From the sequence record NC_047807.1: a stretch of 44,970 nucleotides of DNA, one strand, 5' to 3'. Below, one piece after another: positions 2,268 to 31,964 of this stretch. The translations under genes were made by a program, and so were the position numbers. Under the pieces are notes generated by a model. It was given only the letters and a program-made list of their open reading frames with translations, did no database searches and was not told the DNA's origin. How positions within the stretch are numbered: position 1 is the stretch's first letter; each line of letters starts with the position of its first letter. The DNA comes from Escherichia phage vB_EcoP_C.

Positions 2268-2419
2268 ATTGCGCTAACCTTGGTTTATCGTGGTAGGTTA
2301 TGCTTGCGCCATCTTCCACTATCTAACATTGTTTAACGGCTTCAGTAGCTAGGCCGGATAGTTAAGGACGCTCTCTATCATTCACCCTGAGTGTTTAATG
2401 TCGCTCCCGACTGATTGCT

Positions 2420-2448
2420 AATGTATACCTGTTAACTGCCTATGTCAA
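2420..2448 (-). promoter_or_regulatory. Candidate host sigma70 early promoter (TTGACA-17 nt-TACATT)
   Basis: Consensus -35, 17-nt spacer, -10 TACATT on minus strand in the non-coding region upstream of the early genes. Confidence 0.35.
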
Positions 2449-2675
2449 CACTAAATCGCACTAAGATAGATTATTTATGTGATACCTGTCACAACTGCTA
2501 AGGTAAACCTAGGTTGTCTAACGTGTGAGACTAAGGAAAGCAATAGATACAGAGCTAGGATAGGCTAGGACGGCTAGGTTTCTGGTGTTCCTCCTACTGC
2601 ATCTTATCACTATTACCTACTCTCAGCGGTCTACCGACCGCGACCTAATTGCATCTTATAGCTTTAGCTATGCAA

Positions 2676-8147: not shown

Positions 8148-8172
8148 TTCCTTCTATAGTGTCCGGTAATTA
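8148..8172 (-). promoter_or_regulatory. SP6-type phage RNAP promoter variant (AATTACCGGACACTATAGAAGGAAGG)
   Basis: Promoter family member overlapping the terminase stop codon; drives the paralogue pair and lysis genes. Confidence 0.6.
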
Positions 8173-8901
8173 ATAAGTCCTTGAAATCCTTGCAGAAAGT
8201 GTATTTCTGCTTGCCGATTTACTCCTGTAATTCTGACCGTATACTCTTTGCTGCATAGCCACGGAAGTGTTGGTTACTCTTCGCTCAGTGCCATAATCTC
8301 CATAGAGCATTGCCCTACGGAGGTGAGGTGTGTTCATAGCTTGGATATAATCGCGCATCTCCTGCGCTCTGAGGCGATTAATCCGTGTAACCTCGTCATA
8401 GTCTATCTGAGAAGTTAATTGCCGTATAGCGCCATACAGCGCGTCTAAGCGGTCATCGTGCCGGAGGCTGTTCTTCTCAATCGTGATGTTCGACATTTGA
8501 TTGAAAAGGCTGTATGACATGCGTAGTTCAAGCGGATAGTGCTGTACCGACTCAAAATCAGACTTGACCATCTCTGCGTTGAAGATGAGCCTGTGGGCCG
8601 CCATTAGTGGCTCTAGTGTTTCAATGATACGCAACTCTTTCTGTCCGGTGGCGTAATCTTCCTCCAGAGTCACAGGCCACTCTCGTTCAAAGTATGGCTT
8701 TATAACGGCCTCAAACGCGCCATGACCAAAGTTCTTTTCAATGAATACCTCTTTAACACCTGCCTGCTTTGCGGCCTGCACAATGCGATTCAGGGACGAT
8801 TCGCGGTATCCTCCCGGCACACCAAAGCACTGATACACATAAATGAATGTGCCGTGCAGGAAGACGATAGCCACACCCGTTTCATCCCCATTCTTACCTC
8901 C
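8170..8901 (-). CDS. Terminase large subunit, exon 2 (nuclease domain; GGKNGDETGVAIV onward)
   Basis: ORF-track frame 8170-8952 carries the terminase nuclease motif; sequence upstream of 8901 is intron-derived. Confidence 0.8.
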   Translation of the reverse strand, partial: GGKNGDETGVAIVFLHGTFIYVYQCFGVPGGYRESSLNRIVQAAKQAGVKEVFIEKNFGHGAFEAVIKPYFEREWPVTLEEDYATGQKELRIIETLEPLMAAHRLIFNAEMVKSDFESVQHYPLELRMSYSLFNQMSNITIEKNSLRHDDRLDALYGAIRQLTSQIDYDEVTRINRLRAQEMRDYIQAMNTPHLRRAMLYGDYGTERRVTNTSVAMQQRVYGQNYRSKSASRNTLSARISRTY

Positions 8902-9427
8902 CGGTTTGAACGTGACGTGCGAGCCAACCCTTGTGGTGTTTACGTAAACCATGTGCCACCTTACGCATATTCTGAGGTGTTAGGTTGTGCTCTTTACAGA
9001 AGTCAGTAATGCAAGTTACAAGAAACTCTTCACCATCTGGAGAAGTGAATATGTAATCTTTGCCAGTACCTTTGTTGTAAGGTGTCATGCCTTTCTTGAA
9101 CTCAGTGGCAACAGACAAGTGCTGTCCTTTCTTGATTTCAGTGGCAATACTTATGCGTTCACCTTTCTCGATGTTACCTGCTTTGCGATAACCACCTTTA
9201 CCCTTATTCCAACCCATGTTGTCATGTGGGCGTAGCTTCTCTTCTAGTGCATAACACTCTTCTTTGCTACCAGTGAATAAGATAACGTACTCGCGGCCAT
9301 CACAAAGACGGCCTGCACACTTGTGCTCTCTCATACGCTTCTTAATATCGGAGGTTACACCAATATAACCTTGCATTACATCAGTTTCACCAACAACACG
9401 AATATGATAAACTTTATGCTCTGTCAT
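8894..9427 (-). CDS. GIY-YIG homing endonuclease (intron-encoded), 177 aa
   Basis: GIY-YIG-like motif (VYHI...11 aa...YIGVT), conserved R/E/N positions, C-terminal NUMOD-like repeats; own GGGAG SD; lies inside the terminase intervening sequence. Confidence 0.8.
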   Translation of the reverse strand: MTEHKVYHIRVVGETDVMQGYIGVTSDIKKRMREHKCAGRLCDGREYVILFTGSKEECYALEEKLRPHDNMGWNKGKGGYRKAGNIEKGERISIATEIKKGQHLSVATEFKKGMTPYNKGTGKDYIFTSPDGEEFLVTCITDFCKEHNLTPQNMRKVAHGLRKHHKGWLARHVQTGR

Positions 9428-9647
9428 ATTTAACTCCCTTCAATTGTTACGTTAATTCGCTACTTTAACTTCTACTAGTCACCTAGTAGGTCGGACTATA
9501 TCTTAGGCTTGCGCCTCCCTCTGTTTCAGACCGCTTGGCCTTACAGTTAGTCTCTACACGTTCCTGTTATTGCAACAGGCTTCGCTCGGTATTGTCTCAG
9601 TGAGAGTTCCACCGAATTAAGAGGGTTTTACGCTGGCAGAGGTGTTT
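8902..9647 (-). mobile_element. Group I self-splicing intron (about 746 nt) in terminase large-subunit gene
   Basis: Splits terminase within YIDPAG|GGKNGDETG; P1 (exon GCUGGU with intron GCCAGC 9632-9637); P10 (intron CCUCU with exon-2 GGAGG); P7 core elements GACUA (9546-9557) and AAGAUAUAGUCC (9493-9504); P9-like hairpin with GUGA tetraloop. Confidence 0.75.
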
Positions 9648-10814
9648 ACCAGCGGGGTCAATGTACATAATTTTACGGGTGACAGCGCCCCATTCATACG
9701 GTCGGGCCACAGGGCGATACATAAAGTCTGTAGGCTTATTGCCATACTTCGGTGCATCGCCAATGATGTTAATAGAGTCGTTGCTCCATGTAGGCATCAC
9801 AGGGACTTCCTCTGTACCGAATGAAGTGAAGATGAGGTTGTTCAGGCGTAGCGGATAGCGGTCAGCATCCATCATGCGAGTGTTAAGCATAAACTGAAGC
9901 TGGAACTTAGCCGCACCCTGCGAGATTTCCTTCTCAATCAGCACATCATCATCATACATTTCAGGTGCACAAGGGGCACCACTATTGCCATCCAAGCCAT
10001 ACCCTGAGCGAAGTGCTGGGTTGTCCTTCATATCCTGCACAATCATAGGTGCAAGGAAGTCGCCATAGCATTGCTCCTGCTCCACTGAGGGATAACGTGC
10101 AGTCCAGATACGAACAGAGTAACCACGAGCAGGTAGGTTATTGTAGATAGAGTTTACGTTCTGAGGAGTACCAAGGTAGATAATATCACCAAACTGGTTA
10201 ATAGATTCAAACTCCTTGGTCAGTTCCTCAAGCAAGGCACGTCCTGCCGCTGTACGAGCATTCTGCATTGACTCAACGTCATCTGCTAGGATGATATCTG
10301 CACGCGCACCCTGCATACCTGCTTCGATTGAGTAACAAGACACAGAAGGCGACTTGTCACTGCCACGTAGGGTGTAATGAATCTCAAATGCCTTAACTGA
10401 GGCACGGTCCCCTGCGTAGATGTCCGGTAGCATAAACTCAAGAAAGTCTAGGCCACGGAAGATTTTAACTACCCAACCTGCGATTTCCTCTGCTCGCTTG
10501 GCGTTTTGGGATACAACCATGATACGCTTATGCGGTTCATGAATGATACGGAATACTGTATAGATTGCTGATAGTGTTGTCTTAGCGATACCACGAGGCG
10601 CTTCGATGAGGCGATACTTGTGTCCGTAGAATAGGAACTTCAAGATATCAGCCTGCATACGAATCAGATGAGGGTTGCCTGCAATTAAGTTATGAATAAC
10701 TGTGTCTGCAAAGAGAAGCAAACCTTCCGCTGTGTAAGGAAAGGTCTGCTGTAACTCCTGTAGCATCTCCCATCTGGCAAGAGCCTCCGCTTGTGATTCT
10801 CTTGCCTTAGCCAT
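9648..10814 (-). CDS. Terminase large subunit, exon 1 (ATPase domain)
   Basis: T7 gp19-like sequence; ATG at 10814 overlaps terminase-small stop (TGATG) with AAGGAGG SD; reading frame runs into intron after ...YIDPAG. Confidence 0.85.
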
Positions 10815-11113
10815 CAATCCTCCTTAGTGAATTGAATAATCTTGCCACTTGATGCCTCTCGGATAGCCTTGAGGCGCTTAGATAGCTTGGACTCCTCCTG
10901 CTGTGCAGCGGGTGTAGCGGTAATACCATTATCAAGAACCCACTTACACATAGCTCCAATGTCTTTACCAGAGACTAAATGCAGTGCTGCATCTGGGTCT
11001 TCTTCTATAGTGTCCAGTATTGCCTGTGCTTTCTTATTAAAGATTTTGGTAATAGCACCATGTAGAATGCCAACCTCGTCTTCCGTAGCTGCATGTTTAT
11101 TGTGTACGCTCAT
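10814..11113 (-). CDS. Terminase small subunit (T7 gp18-like), about 99 aa
   Basis: Position between holin and terminase large subunit; start moved to ATG at 11113 with GGAGGAGG SD. Confidence 0.65.
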   Translation of the reverse strand: MSVHNKHAATEDEVGILHGAITKIFNKKAQAILDTIEEDPDAALHLVSGKDIGAMCKWVLDNGITATPAAQQEESKLSKRLKAIREASSGKIIQFTKED

Positions 11114-28856: not shown

Positions 28857-28907
28857 AATTAATTCCTCCATTCACTATACAATCAAGGGCAAGCTAATAC
28901 CTACCCT

Positions 28908-28930
28908 TTGTTCTATAGTGTCAACTAAAT
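28908..28930 (-). promoter_or_regulatory. SP6-type phage RNAP promoter (ATTTAGTTGACACTATAGAACAA)
   Basis: Promoter family member overlapping the phosphoesterase stop codon. Confidence 0.7.
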
Positions 28931-29932
28931 CTTACCAATCCAGCGATTGTCATTATTGGTCTGCATCGGGACAATGTGCGGCACACCCTCCAGAATAACC
29001 ACACAACCTAATGCTGGCTTGTATTTGGACTCACGACCATAGGCAAATGCACGAGATGACTCATCAATCAAACAGCCTCCCTGCACAGCCCAATACTGTT
29101 CATGGGTGTTACGTGCATACTCCACCGACATCTTCCCATGCAAGTGACCACACACTAAGTTCATGCGCTCATGTGCTGCATCTGCTAGGACAGCGCCAGC
29201 AGGTTGATGCTTGAACGCCACCTGCTCACCATTAGGTAGCTCAAGTACATGCGTATGCTGCCAGTCCCACTGGTCGCCACCTCCCTGCGGGAAGAAGACT
29301 TCACGGTATGTGCGCAGGTATTGCACAGGGATGCCATGAGCACTGGCCTTACGGAAATGTAAGGAGCCATGATTAGAGTGGCAGATGCGCATTACAGGGA
29401 ACATCTTATGTAATTTACGCATGAAGATACGAGCCTTCTCTAACTCCATACCAGCCGAATCCAGATTAGGATCTGACGTATGGAATGAAAGTGCGTGCTT
29501 GTCCGCCTCATCACCAAGATGAACTACAGTGTCTGGACGGTAACGTGCTGCCACCGCTGCCAGAAACTCTAATGTATCTGGATGCTCATAAGGTGCATGG
29601 GTGTCAGGTATTACCAGTACACTTCGATGAGGCGAGTCAGGCAATGGTACAATAGCCAAATCCTCGTAGCGGTCAGGAGTCCTGAGCTTACGTTCTTCTT
29701 TGATAGCACGGTTCGCAATAGCCAAGGTTTCATACGCCTCGCCATTCTTCTTCCGCTTTTCAAATTGTTTGGCCCAATACTTTGCAAGCTGCCTTGTAAC
29801 TGTAGTCCCGTGTGTGTTATCTGAGAGAATAGACGCCATTAGGCGATAGTTGATAGTGCCATCATCCCGCTTTGCACTTTCAACTGCTTCTTCTACCTCC
29901 TTATTAGTAAACAAGTTTCTAATCTTACCCAT
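28925..29932 (-). CDS. Calcineurin-like metallophosphoesterase, about 335 aa
   Basis: Motifs DTH, GDEAD, SNHG, GHLH in canonical order; ATG overlaps HNH endonuclease stop (TAATG). Confidence 0.7.
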   Translation of the reverse strand: MGKIRNLFTNKEVEEAVESAKRDDGTINYRLMASILSDNTHGTTVTRQLAKYWAKQFEKRKKNGEAYETLAIANRAIKEERKLRTPDRYEDLAIVPLPDSPHRSVLVIPDTHAPYEHPDTLEFLAAVAARYRPDTVVHLGDEADKHALSFHTSDPNLDSAGMELEKARIFMRKLHKMFPVMRICHSNHGSLHFRKASAHGIPVQYLRTYREVFFPQGGGDQWDWQHTHVLELPNGEQVAFKHQPAGAVLADAAHERMNLVCGHLHGKMSVEYARNTHEQYWAVQGGCLIDESSRAFAYGRESKYKPALGCVVILEGVPHIVPMQTNNDNRWIGKI

Positions 29933-30363
29933 TATTCTTTCCAAACCCTCCCGCTTACAATATCACTAATGGTAGCAGGTGAGACATTATATAGCTTAGC
30001 TAGTCGTAACCTCTCACCTTTCTTATTAGCAACATATGTTGCCCTGATAGCACGTACAACATCCCAAGTTAGTTTAGCACGATTATTATTTTCTCCTGCA
30101 AAGCTAGCACGTCTGCCTCGATCTATCATATCTTGTATGTTGTCCTGCTGTGTACCAGATATTAAGTGTGCAGGGTTTATACACCTTGCATTATCACAAG
30201 TGTGTCTAATCACTACATCCTTTATATCCTCTATAGAAAGGCCGTGGTGCTCTGCATAGACCACGCGATGAAGTAATTGTAACCTCTTACTAGGTTTATG
30301 CCACGACCTGTAGTAACCTAATTGATTTAAGCATTTATAATGCCCGTGGTCTATACAGTCCAT
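29932..30363 (-). CDS. HNH homing endonuclease, free-standing (about 143 aa)
   Basis: HNH block HHGLSIEDIKDVVIRHTCDNARCINPAHL plus C-terminal HTH-like tail; start moved to ATG at 30363 with AAGGAG SD. Confidence 0.8.
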   Translation of the reverse strand: MDCIDHGHYKCLNQLGYYRSWHKPSKRLQLLHRVVYAEHHGLSIEDIKDVVIRHTCDNARCINPAHLISGTQQDNIQDMIDRGRRASFAGENNNRAKLTWDVVRAIRATYVANKKGERLRLAKLYNVSPATISDIVSGRVWKE

Positions 30364-30364
30364 A

Positions 30365-30766
30365 TCATACTCCTTTCTTTCTTGCATAAGCAAGGCGTGC
30401 CTTACGGTTCTTAGCCTCGCGCTTCTCTGCCTCCGTTTGATGTTTGTGATATAACTTATCTGTCTGAGGCGTACTATGTAACTTCCAGTATTCATACAGT
30501 CGTTCTAACCATTGAAGCTGGAAGTAACGGTTATTACCTGCCTTGCCATAACCAGAGATAACACCCTTAATCTTCCCTTCCGCACCATTGCAGCCTCGGC
30601 ATACAACAGCGCGGCAGAATCCTGTCTCATGGTCATGGTCAAGTACACGGTTTACAGGTGTGACAGCTTTGAGACTGCCGCCACACAGAGGGCATTTCCA
30701 GCCTTGCTTATCCAGCAATTCCTTCTTATAAGCTGCCACCTCCGATGCTTTTAATTTGCTAACCAT
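30365..30766 (-). CDS. Endonuclease VII-like junction-resolving nuclease, 133 aa
   Basis: Cys-rich zinc site (CPLCGG...CRGCNG) and DHDH motif typical of the T4 endonuclease VII family. Confidence 0.7.
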   Translation of the reverse strand: MVSKLKASEVAAYKKELLDKQGWKCPLCGGSLKAVTPVNRVLDHDHETGFCRAVVCRGCNGAEGKIKGVISGYGKAGNNRYFQLQWLERLYEYWKLHSTPQTDKLYHKHQTEAEKREAKNRKARLAYARKKGV

Positions 30767-31779
30767 TCCGCATCATCTCCCCACAAGATTGGGTTCTTAT
30801 CGGCTCGCCATATATCACCTTTGAATCTAGCCATGTGAGCTAGGCGACCACATTCAAGCATCAGGTCAAAGGCTTTGCCGATACGATAACCACCTCGGTA
30901 ATTCTTAATCTTAACTTGTCCATGCCCGAACTTAGCCTTGTAAGCACCCAGCACTGCCATGTACAACTCTTTCTCTGTCTTACAATCTTTGAGAAGATCA
31001 TAGGCATATTTAGCACCACGACCTGGTATGCCAGCATAGTTATCAATATCATCACCGATAATCATCTGTGCATAGTGGAACATGAGGCCAGCACCTTTTA
31101 GATCTTTGACTTGCCCATTAGCCTTACGGCGTAGCTCAAGCCAGCCCATAGGCTCTACCCACTTCTTCTCTTGACCCGGCTGTAGATGCCAACCGGGAAC
31201 AATCATCAAATCCTTATCCAAGGAAACGATGCAAGTATCAGAGAATGCTTTATGCTCTGGACTACCGATAGGGAACTCGTTACCTGTATCTTGCTGGAAG
31301 CGGCGGTGGCTGTCCCATTGTGCGATACTCATGAGGTCGTCTGCTTCCTCTCCATCTGCCAAGATTGCACCGTGAACCTCTAAGAGATGCTCTCGCAATT
31401 CATAGAAGAATGGAGGCTTCTCGGTCTTACGTTGGCCTTTATAAGGCTTGGTGAATGCTAGGCGGACACGGAAGTTAGCTTCTGATTTCGTCATGAATAA
31501 CTTAGCTGCATCACATTCTGCTGCATACACCCAAGAGTTAAGCAAGGAGTTCACACGGTCACACGCTTGCTTACACTCAGGCGTATCTTTGATTGATGGG
31601 ACTTGTCCTGACTTAACACGAGTTGTGGCTCGTACATAAGTCATGTCGCTGATTGTATACGCGACGATGTAAGGCAACATATCGGCATCTATTAAAGCGA
31701 TTCGATTACCTTCAGTCGGCCACAGGATGAGATTATTGTCTTCCGATACTGTAGCTCCGAAGTCGAAGTTTGGTCGCAT
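30751..31779 (-). CDS. 5'-3' exonuclease (T7 gp6-like, FEN family), about 342 aa
   Basis: Recalled similarity to T7 gene 6 exonuclease; start moved to ATG at 31779 with AAGGAG SD. Confidence 0.8.
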   Translation of the reverse strand: MRPNFDFGATVSEDNNLILWPTEGNRIALIDADMLPYIVAYTISDMTYVRATTRVKSGQVPSIKDTPECKQACDRVNSLLNSWVYAAECDAAKLFMTKSEANFRVRLAFTKPYKGQRKTEKPPFFYELREHLLEVHGAILADGEEADDLMSIAQWDSHRRFQQDTGNEFPIGSPEHKAFSDTCIVSLDKDLMIVPGWHLQPGQEKKWVEPMGWLELRRKANGQVKDLKGAGLMFHYAQMIIGDDIDNYAGIPGRGAKYAYDLLKDCKTEKELYMAVLGAYKAKFGHGQVKIKNYRGGYRIGKAFDLMLECGRLAHMARFKGDIWRADKNPILWGDDAEWLAN

Positions 31780-31964
31780 GTAGGCCACTCCTTCAAGAAG
31801 GAGGACACCGCATCATGGAGGTTCTGTCTTAACCAATAGTCATCCCATTGTCTCACCTCCACTAGCTTCTCACCAGTTTTGTAATCATAGGCAACCCCAA
31901 TATACTGTCTGGTGATTGCATTGTAGCTAATGTCCAGTTCAATTCGAGATTCAATAGTCGGCAT
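31692..31964 (-). CDS. Hypothetical protein (90 aa) overlapping the exonuclease start by about 88 nt
   Basis: ORF track; GGAG SD; 3' third overlaps exonuclease out of frame. Confidence 0.45.
   Translation of the reverse strand: MPTIESRIELDISYNAITRQYIGVAYDYKTGEKLVEVRQWDDYWLRQNLHDAVSSFLKEWPTCDQTSTSELQYRKTIISSCGRLKVIESL

Follow-up and report, generated by a model that had tools for sequence, protein, structure and literature searches.

A sporadic HNH endonuclease gene tied to a variant phosphoesterase 5' segment in Vectrevirus phages: a probable free-standing homing endonuclease

Why does a small HNH endonuclease gene stand between two conserved DNA-metabolism genes in some K1 coliphages, when their close relatives do without it? 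The question is raised by an open reading frame (ORF) at positions 29932..30363 of the genome of Escherichia phage vB_EcoP_C (NC_047807.1; 44,970 nucleotides, the whole of which is the window of this analysis), which lies between the genes for endonuclease VII and a metallophosphoesterase (PE). A model working from the letters alone (the sequence-only reading) had taken the ORF for a free-standing homing endonuclease gene, and comparison with related phages supports this: presence is sporadic, a variant flank accompanies the gene, the arrangement recurs in Drulisvirus, the catalytic motif is intact and the protein is under purifying selection. We put the probability of this explanation at roughly 0.75. 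The distribution, borders, linkage and selection of the gene are drawn from sequence comparison, and cleavage, the position of the target and biased inheritance would follow by analogy with known enzymes. Region 28900-31800 is 100% identical to Escherichia phages vB_EcoP_D (KY295893.1) and vB_EcoP_R, so that ‘D’ in the comparisons below stands for the window sequence at this locus. Phages D and R belong to Vectrevirus (Autographiviridae, Molineuxvirinae; K1-5/K1E/SP6-like) and come from the K1 collection of Smith and Huggins (PMC5582158). The public record of vB_EcoP_D already labels the gene ‘HNH endonuclease’, and the paper on these phages names only ‘a homing endonuclease’ among the gene differences of R and K (PMC5582158).

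Distribution, borders and linked flank of the HNH gene in Vectrevirus

The 2.9-kb region around the ORF matched 99 phage records, and at least 80% of it was covered in only 10 of these (8 phages); the other records aligned in two pieces and were ~430 bp shorter at the position of the HNH gene. A translated search with the HNH protein returned the same 10 records (8 phages) at 70% identity or more. The carriers are vB_EcoP_D, R, K and B, vB_Ec-G9, Vectrevirus PDP21P6, and the Klebsiella phages K44PH129C1 and Koku (89.5% amino acid identity in the last two), and in every one of the 10 records the gene is flanked by endonuclease VII and PE. Most Vectrevirus genomes lack the ORF, as do K1-5, K1E and SP6. 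In K1-5, K1E and SP6, endonuclease VII abuts PE, and in K1-5 the two genes overlap by 8 nt with nothing between them. The sequence-only reading had named universal presence with conserved flanks as the pattern that would speak against mobility; the ORF was found in 10 of 99 records, and its downstream flank is not conserved. Presence and absence at a fixed site among close relatives is one mark by which a homing endonuclease gene is recognised.

The borders of the insertion could be placed by alignment of D with K1-5. Over the exonuclease gene and that for endonuclease VII the two agree at 98-100% of positions, and this similarity ends at 30375; at this border D reads AAAGGAGTATGAT-ATG, i.e., the start of the HNH ORF, and K1-5 reads AAGGAGGTTAAAG-TTG, i.e., the start of PE. 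In K1-5, which has no HNH gene, the equivalent Shine-Dalgarno (SD) site (GGAGG) serves the TTG start of PE. Thus, the HNH ATG occupies the position of the K1-5 PE start and uses the same ribosome-binding site. The border is even plainer in PDP21P6, with GGAGGTTAAcGTGG compared to GGAGGTTAAaGTTGG in K1-5. A strong SD had been described just after the endonuclease VII stop; the SD is present, but AAGGAG (30375..30370) precedes the TGA (30367..30365), and this position is the sole error in the earlier observation. The ATG follows the TGA after a gap of 1 nt, and at the other end the HNH stop and the PE start share 1 nt in the sequence TAATG, as the sequence-only reading had stated. The ORF itself was likewise verified from start, stop and domains.

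Beyond position 30375, the comparison of D with K1-5 passes through the 432-bp ORF, then 228 bp (29931..29704) at ~48% nucleotide identity, and from 29703 onward identity is 98% again. The variant 228-bp segment is ~77% identical in nucleotides and 86% in amino acids to an HNH-carrying Klebsiella phage. At the protein level the PE of D is a chimera: its N-terminal 76 residues are identical to K1-5 at 35 positions (46%) and to the Klebsiella phage at 65, and 252 of the remaining 259 residues (97%) are identical to K1-5. The haplotype at ~29703..29263 of the PE gene is still common to the carriers D, G9 and PDP21P6. Both endonuclease VII and PE are full-length, i.e., the insertion leaves its neighbours intact, and the genes of this region are all on the minus strand. 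The insertion is precise and lies outside an intron or intein, a further property of free-standing homing endonuclease genes. Consistent with this, Rfam gave no intron at the HNH locus, its sole match in the window being elsewhere, and a search of the ORF borders for direct or inverted repeats and target-site duplications yielded only short chance matches. An insertion sequence or transposon is ruled out by the absence of terminal repeats and target duplications at these borders. The gene is located in the DNA-metabolism cluster, ~20 kb away from the terminase genes (8170..10817). A packaging HNH protein of the HK97 gp74 type, which is encoded next to terminase and needed for cos cleavage, was also rejected, as this gene is far from terminase and absent from most relatives.

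The variant PE segment is tied to the HNH gene. As DNA, the D-type 228-bp segment is confined to the 10 records with the HNH gene, if two weak partial hits to Aeromonas phages are set aside. For the K1-5-type PE N-terminus, 104 records gave matches at 80% amino acid identity or more; SP6, Proteus phages and Klebsiella phage cp4 are among them. Where the HNH gene is lacking, the closest relatives of the D-type N-terminus are those of Vibrio, Aeromonas, Marinomonas and Pseudomonas phages, at 56-62% amino acid identity. Three HNH-less phages with D-type-like N-termini were inspected at the junction: in Vibrio phage VP505 and Klebsiella phage K13PH07C1L endonuclease VII is followed directly by PE, and in Aeromonas phage Tola only an ORF of 47 amino acids (2361..2504 of locus L007) lies between the two. 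Since similar forms exist without HNH in other phages, the D-type PE N-terminus does not need the HNH gene. A Drulisvirus-like donor of this N-terminus was considered and rejected, with 13 of 65 residues identical. A flank that is inherited together with the gene, here the 228-bp PE segment in carriers only and again in 17 Drulisvirus records described below, is expected of a homing endonuclease, and we infer that the nuclease brought this about. The ORF of Tola, whose function is not known, stands at the same junction, which may be a general insertion hotspot.

PDP21P6 shows signs of exchange of the gene between genomes. Its HNH allele is 71.5% identical to that of D in amino acids, with silent sites saturated (dS about 2), and the flanks are nearly the same as in D, i.e., 100% over the last 75 bp of endonuclease VII and 95% over the PE 5' segment; the breakpoints coincide with the two ORF ends. 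A second mosaic block adjoins the HNH gene in this phage: endonuclease VII, in its middle and 5' portion (equivalent to window positions 30451..30800), is only ~55-80% identical to both D and K1-5. Phages D and G9 share an HNH-linked haplotype from ~30450 to ~29263 within outer backgrounds that are K1-5-like in G9 and T145P2-like in D. We dropped a description of D as a clean T145P2 background with one converted patch; D and the HNH-less T145P2 form a mosaic at 87-99% identity throughout, and both genomes are of this kind. The ratio dN/dS was 0.066 between D and the Klebsiella phage and 0.11 between D and PDP21P6, and these low values indicate that the HNH protein is under purifying selection. 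In vB_EcoP_B (KY295891.1), a 2-bp (TA) deletion in a TATATA run at about window position 29990 truncates the protein at residue 124 with loss of the last helix, and uncouples the HNH stop from the PE start. This copy is either a decaying gene or a sequencing error; unless it is the latter, the frameshift means that the HNH gene is dispensable. Base composition was uninformative as a sign of foreign origin: the guanine-plus-cytosine (GC) content of the ORF is 40.3% against 45.0% for the genome, and 12% of the genome's 432-bp windows are as low or lower. A promoter and terminator scan around the gene cluster, which leaves out phage-type promoters, gave no more sites than expected from shuffled sequence.

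Domains, predicted fold and conserved residues of the HNH protein

The sequence-only reading described an HNH nuclease core with a C-terminal tail resembling a helix-turn-helix (HTH), and domain searches and structure prediction agree with it. Pfam HNH_3 matched the ORF at 33.1 bits (cut-off 24.8, E=4e-8), the zinc-binding His-Me model zf-His_Me_endon fell just under its own cut-off, and PHROG HNH endonuclease families matched over the whole length of the protein (E=9e-27 and 2e-25). Residues 86-138 matched phrog_517, ‘HTH DNA binding protein’ (E=2e-7), and Pfam HTH_3 gave a weak match to the C-terminus (E=0.03-0.06). The HNH/His-Me core spans about residues 30-77, and a three-helix DNA-binding module spans about residues 98-138; such a module besides the nuclease is characteristic of homing endonucleases. 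An AlphaFold model built on the homologue alignment (mean pLDDT 84) has short strands and a beta-beta-alpha core, followed by three helices (100-109, 117-125 and 129-137).

To assess residue conservation, the protein was aligned with 14 homologues from a large protein collection. Twelve residues were invariant in this 15-sequence alignment (R33, H54, C56, D57, C61, N63, P64, H66, L67, G70, T71 and N75), and the motif reads IRHTCDNxRCINPxHLxxGTxxDN. The beta-beta-alpha-metal core, with its catalytic His and Asn/His metal ligands, places the protein in the HNH (His-Me finger) superfamily. A Cys/His-rich N-terminal segment (C3, H6, H8 and C11) and the C56/C61 pair suggest a putative zinc site.

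Kinship to any characterised enzyme is at the level of the fold only. Foldseek comparison of the model with the Protein Data Bank (PDB) gave no match at E<=0.001, and a PDB sequence search with the protein gave no chain at E<=1. The best Foldseek match was weak, i.e., the HNH homing endonuclease I-HmuI at E=0.036; I-HmuI and I-PpoI, both homing endonucleases, are among the best matches to solved structures, as are homeodomain and Tc3-type HTH folds for the C-terminus. A local tblastn search of the window with the HNH protein found no paralogue.

Recurrence beside the phosphoesterase gene and competing explanations

The next-closest homologues, at 52-56% identity, are found in Drulisvirus (subfamily Slopekvirinae), e.g., KpV71 (gp21) and Minorna (gp37). 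There the gene is directly upstream of PE and overlaps it; on its left, in place of endonuclease VII, it is bordered by an intergenic region that follows a small gene downstream of DNA polymerase. The Drulisvirus locus matched 259 records, 17 of which were covered to at least 80% and carry the HNH gene, most of the others being ~400 bp shorter. KpV71 is ~95% identical to the HNH-less KpV41, F19 and phi1_066009 up to the ribosome-binding site, after which the HNH ORF begins; behind the ORF, PE is 55-80% identical over ~270-470 bp and further on 96-100% identical to KpV41. In Drulisvirus, as in Vectrevirus, the HNH gene is inserted between the SD and the PE start. The KpV71-type PE N-terminus, at 95% amino acid identity or more, was present in exactly 17 records, the same 17 that carry HNH, and the next best match was at 69%. 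From these comparisons Drulisvirus is an independent replicate of an HNH gene with a linked PE 5' allele. The Drulisvirus examples (KpV71 gp21, Minorna gp37) and the Klebsiella phages K44PH129C1 and Koku are alike in nuclease family, position before PE, sporadic occurrence and possession of a specific PE 5' allele. A third setting is provided by metagenomic phiKMV-like contigs (~44 kb), in which the exonuclease and endonuclease VII genes are followed, in this order, by an HNH gene (59-61% identical) and a PE homologue (46% identical).

How the gene spreads can be proposed on the model of known free-standing enzymes. The HNH gene would rely on the ribosome-binding site taken from PE for its expression alongside the DNA-metabolism genes, and translation would be passed on to PE by the TAATG overlap. 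On co-infection with an HNH-less relative, the enzyme would nick or cut the relative's DNA at or close to the point where endonuclease VII meets PE, or within the initial ~230 bp of PE, and recombinational repair from the carrier genome would copy in the HNH gene and the adjacent PE 5' segment. On the simplest reading, the divergent PE 5' allele would be the co-converted, cleavage-resistant form of the target region. As a tentative extension, which we think possible and would not yet favour, the mobile unit may be a two-part cassette of the HNH gene and the first ~76 PE codons, belonging to a family specialised on the PE start in at least three Autographiviridae lineages and swapping the PE N-terminal domain with each move; the swapped domain could double as an immunity allele. 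If this were true, a selfish nuclease would drive the domain-level evolution of a conserved phage protein.

Several points weigh against a homing endonuclease. Cleavage and homing are ascribed to the enzyme by analogy. The genomes are mosaic everywhere, so that breakpoints beside the HNH gene are to some degree expected by chance, and the GC content of the gene is not unusual. Given the D-type-like PE N-termini that occur without HNH, either allele may be the ancestral one and either the sensitive target. Furthermore, the PE segment differs in protein (46%) and not just at silent sites, and therefore target immunity alone does not account for it; the HNH gene could simply be accompanied by a domain allele of greater age.

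The amino acid differences in the linked PE segment are also what would be expected if the protein were an accessory, non-mobile nuclease working with PE, e.g., in host-DNA breakdown or DNA-end processing, which had been inherited vertically with many losses, the PE allele reflecting protein-protein co-adaptation. The strongly purifying selection (dN/dS 0.07-0.11) would fit such a role, as would the adjacency and translational coupling of HNH to PE in three lineages whose PE proteins are only 46% identical. However, ~90% of the relatives, otherwise 92-98% identical, manage without the gene, and each loss would have to remove the exact ORF and also replace 228 bp of PE. PDP21P6 shows replacement of the HNH allele between flanks that are almost identical, D-type-like PE N-termini exist without HNH in Vibrio and Aeromonas phages, and a frameshifted copy is tolerated in vB_EcoP_B, and we therefore consider an accessory nuclease improbable. 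The truncated vB_EcoP_B copy can also be read in favour of a former homing endonuclease that no longer moves, became fixed in a small clade and is kept because PE translation depends on it, its distribution being the product of ordinary mosaic recombination. PE has lost the position of its ribosome-binding site to HNH and starts at TAATG, in keeping with this, and Vectrevirus genomes are mosaic throughout. Coupling alone, though, would not keep catalytic residues invariant and dN/dS low across alleles whose silent sites are saturated, and the same cassette is found in differing backgrounds (D, G9, PDP21P6 and the Klebsiella phages) and in a second subfamily; an immobile relic seems to us quite improbable. 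A frame that arose by chance or was called wrongly, or a pseudogene in decay, has nothing in its favour beyond the general caution that ORF lists are mechanical; this reading can practically be dismissed, since the Pfam and PHROG matches, the low dN/dS, the confidently predicted fold and conservation in >1000 phage records all contradict it.

Known systems, the terminase intron and neighbouring features

A free-standing homing endonuclease would have close parallels in other phages. The sequence-only reading had attributed biased inheritance of flanking markers to such enzymes in T7-like phages, a statement that originates in work on T4-type phages (PMC2988022; mobE, PMC2790892). The T4-type free-standing HNH genes, such as that for MobE (PMC2988022, PMC2790892), are likewise small, lie between conserved DNA-metabolism genes and are sporadic in close relatives; a flank is apparently co-converted, and the carrier has a divergent neighbouring gene region. 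They differ in that sequence similarity is limited to the HNH motif and the C-terminal DNA-binding module is another one, whereas the present gene belongs to an Autographiviridae podovirus, has taken over the ribosome-binding site and start of its neighbour, and is known from comparison of genomes. I-HmuI (PDB 1U3E), an intron-encoded HNH nicking enzyme of Bacillus phage SPO1, gave the HNH protein a weak Foldseek score (E=0.036) and no detectable sequence match; it is encoded inside a group I intron and the present gene is free-standing; the Cys/His-rich N-terminal segment and the C56/C61 pair also set our protein apart from it. HNH genes at recombination boundaries have been described (Barth, Dunham and Seed, 2023, PMC10448857; Skunavirus, PMC12724721), and these share the location of a nuclease gene at the border of similar and divergent sequence, beside a conserved gene, although they concern vibriophage ICP1, lactococcal phages and other phage lineages.

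In the literature we found no experiment on biased marker inheritance by such enzymes for SP6/K1-5-like phages, and no description of this HNH locus or of HNH linkage to the PE gene. Neither the HNH annotation of this gene nor the class of free-standing homing endonucleases is new; the recurring tie of this family to the start of the PE gene is, as far as we found, undescribed, and would not surprise a specialist. The comparison adds a clean natural example in K1 coliphages of the therapeutic type, with the same nuclease family before the PE gene in different podovirus subfamilies, each time rare and tied to its own PE 5' allele. The locus would be a convenient system for work on homing and marker exclusion in SP6/K1-5-like phages, and in phage cocktails co-infecting Vectrevirus phages may preferentially exchange this region.

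The window also contains a group I intron (Rfam RF00028, 61 bits, 9472..9720, minus strand) inside a split large-terminase gene, where it separates an N-terminal from a C-terminal ORF. A terminase insert of ~747 bp is present in D, R, the K1E records AM084415 and NC_007637, and a few Klebsiella and Salmonella phages, and absent from vB_EcoP_K, vB_EcoP_B, K1-5 and most Vectrevirus genomes. Both HNH gene and intron occur in D and R, the HNH gene only in K and B, the intron only in K1E, and neither in K1-5. Because the two are distributed independently, the earlier proposal of a terminase intron and two independent mobile nuclease elements in this phage holds. The features of both loci are collected in Table 1.

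Table 1. Positions of the HNH locus and terminase locus features in the window
Feature	Position	Strand	Remarks
HNH endonuclease ORF	29932..30363	minus	143 aa plus stop; ATG 30363..30361, TAA 29934..29932
Endonuclease VII gene (upstream neighbour)	30365..30766	minus	133 aa; PF02945, E=1.6e-12; TGA stop 30367..30365
Metallophosphoesterase (PE) gene (downstream neighbour)	28925..29932	minus	335 aa; PF00149; phrog_221, E=9e-105
Shine-Dalgarno AAGGAG of the HNH ORF	30370..30375	minus	6 nt before the HNH ATG, within the end of the endonuclease VII gene; read from sequence and alignments
HNH-linked variant 5' segment of the PE gene (first 76 codons)	29704..29931	minus	from alignments
Rest of the PE gene, K1-5-like	28925..29703	minus	252/259 aa identical to K1-5
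Large-terminase N-terminal ORF	9597..10817	minus	split gene
Large-terminase C-terminal ORF	8170..8952	minus	PF22530
Intron ORF, 177 aa	8894..9427	minus	weak, below-threshold GIY-YIG and I-HmuI NUMOD-like matches

Other variable genes were noted in the regions compared. Between the DNA polymerase region and PE, Drulisvirus genomes also carry nucleotidyltransferase genes and other HNH genes (e.g., PP889493.1, OY978782.1, PQ657834.1 and NC_025418.1), and these variable inserts suggest an insertion hotspot. One metagenomic phiKMV-like contig (L016, 1882..2532) has a 216-aa ORF with a weak match to Gad2 (PF26128) between exonuclease and endonuclease VII, which is not present in its relative L014. 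In the window itself, a 90-aa ORF at 31692..31964 (minus strand), the counterpart of K1-5 gp22, overlaps the start of the exonuclease gene; it is unannotated in KY295893.1 and named ‘DNA repair protein’ in RefSeq relatives.

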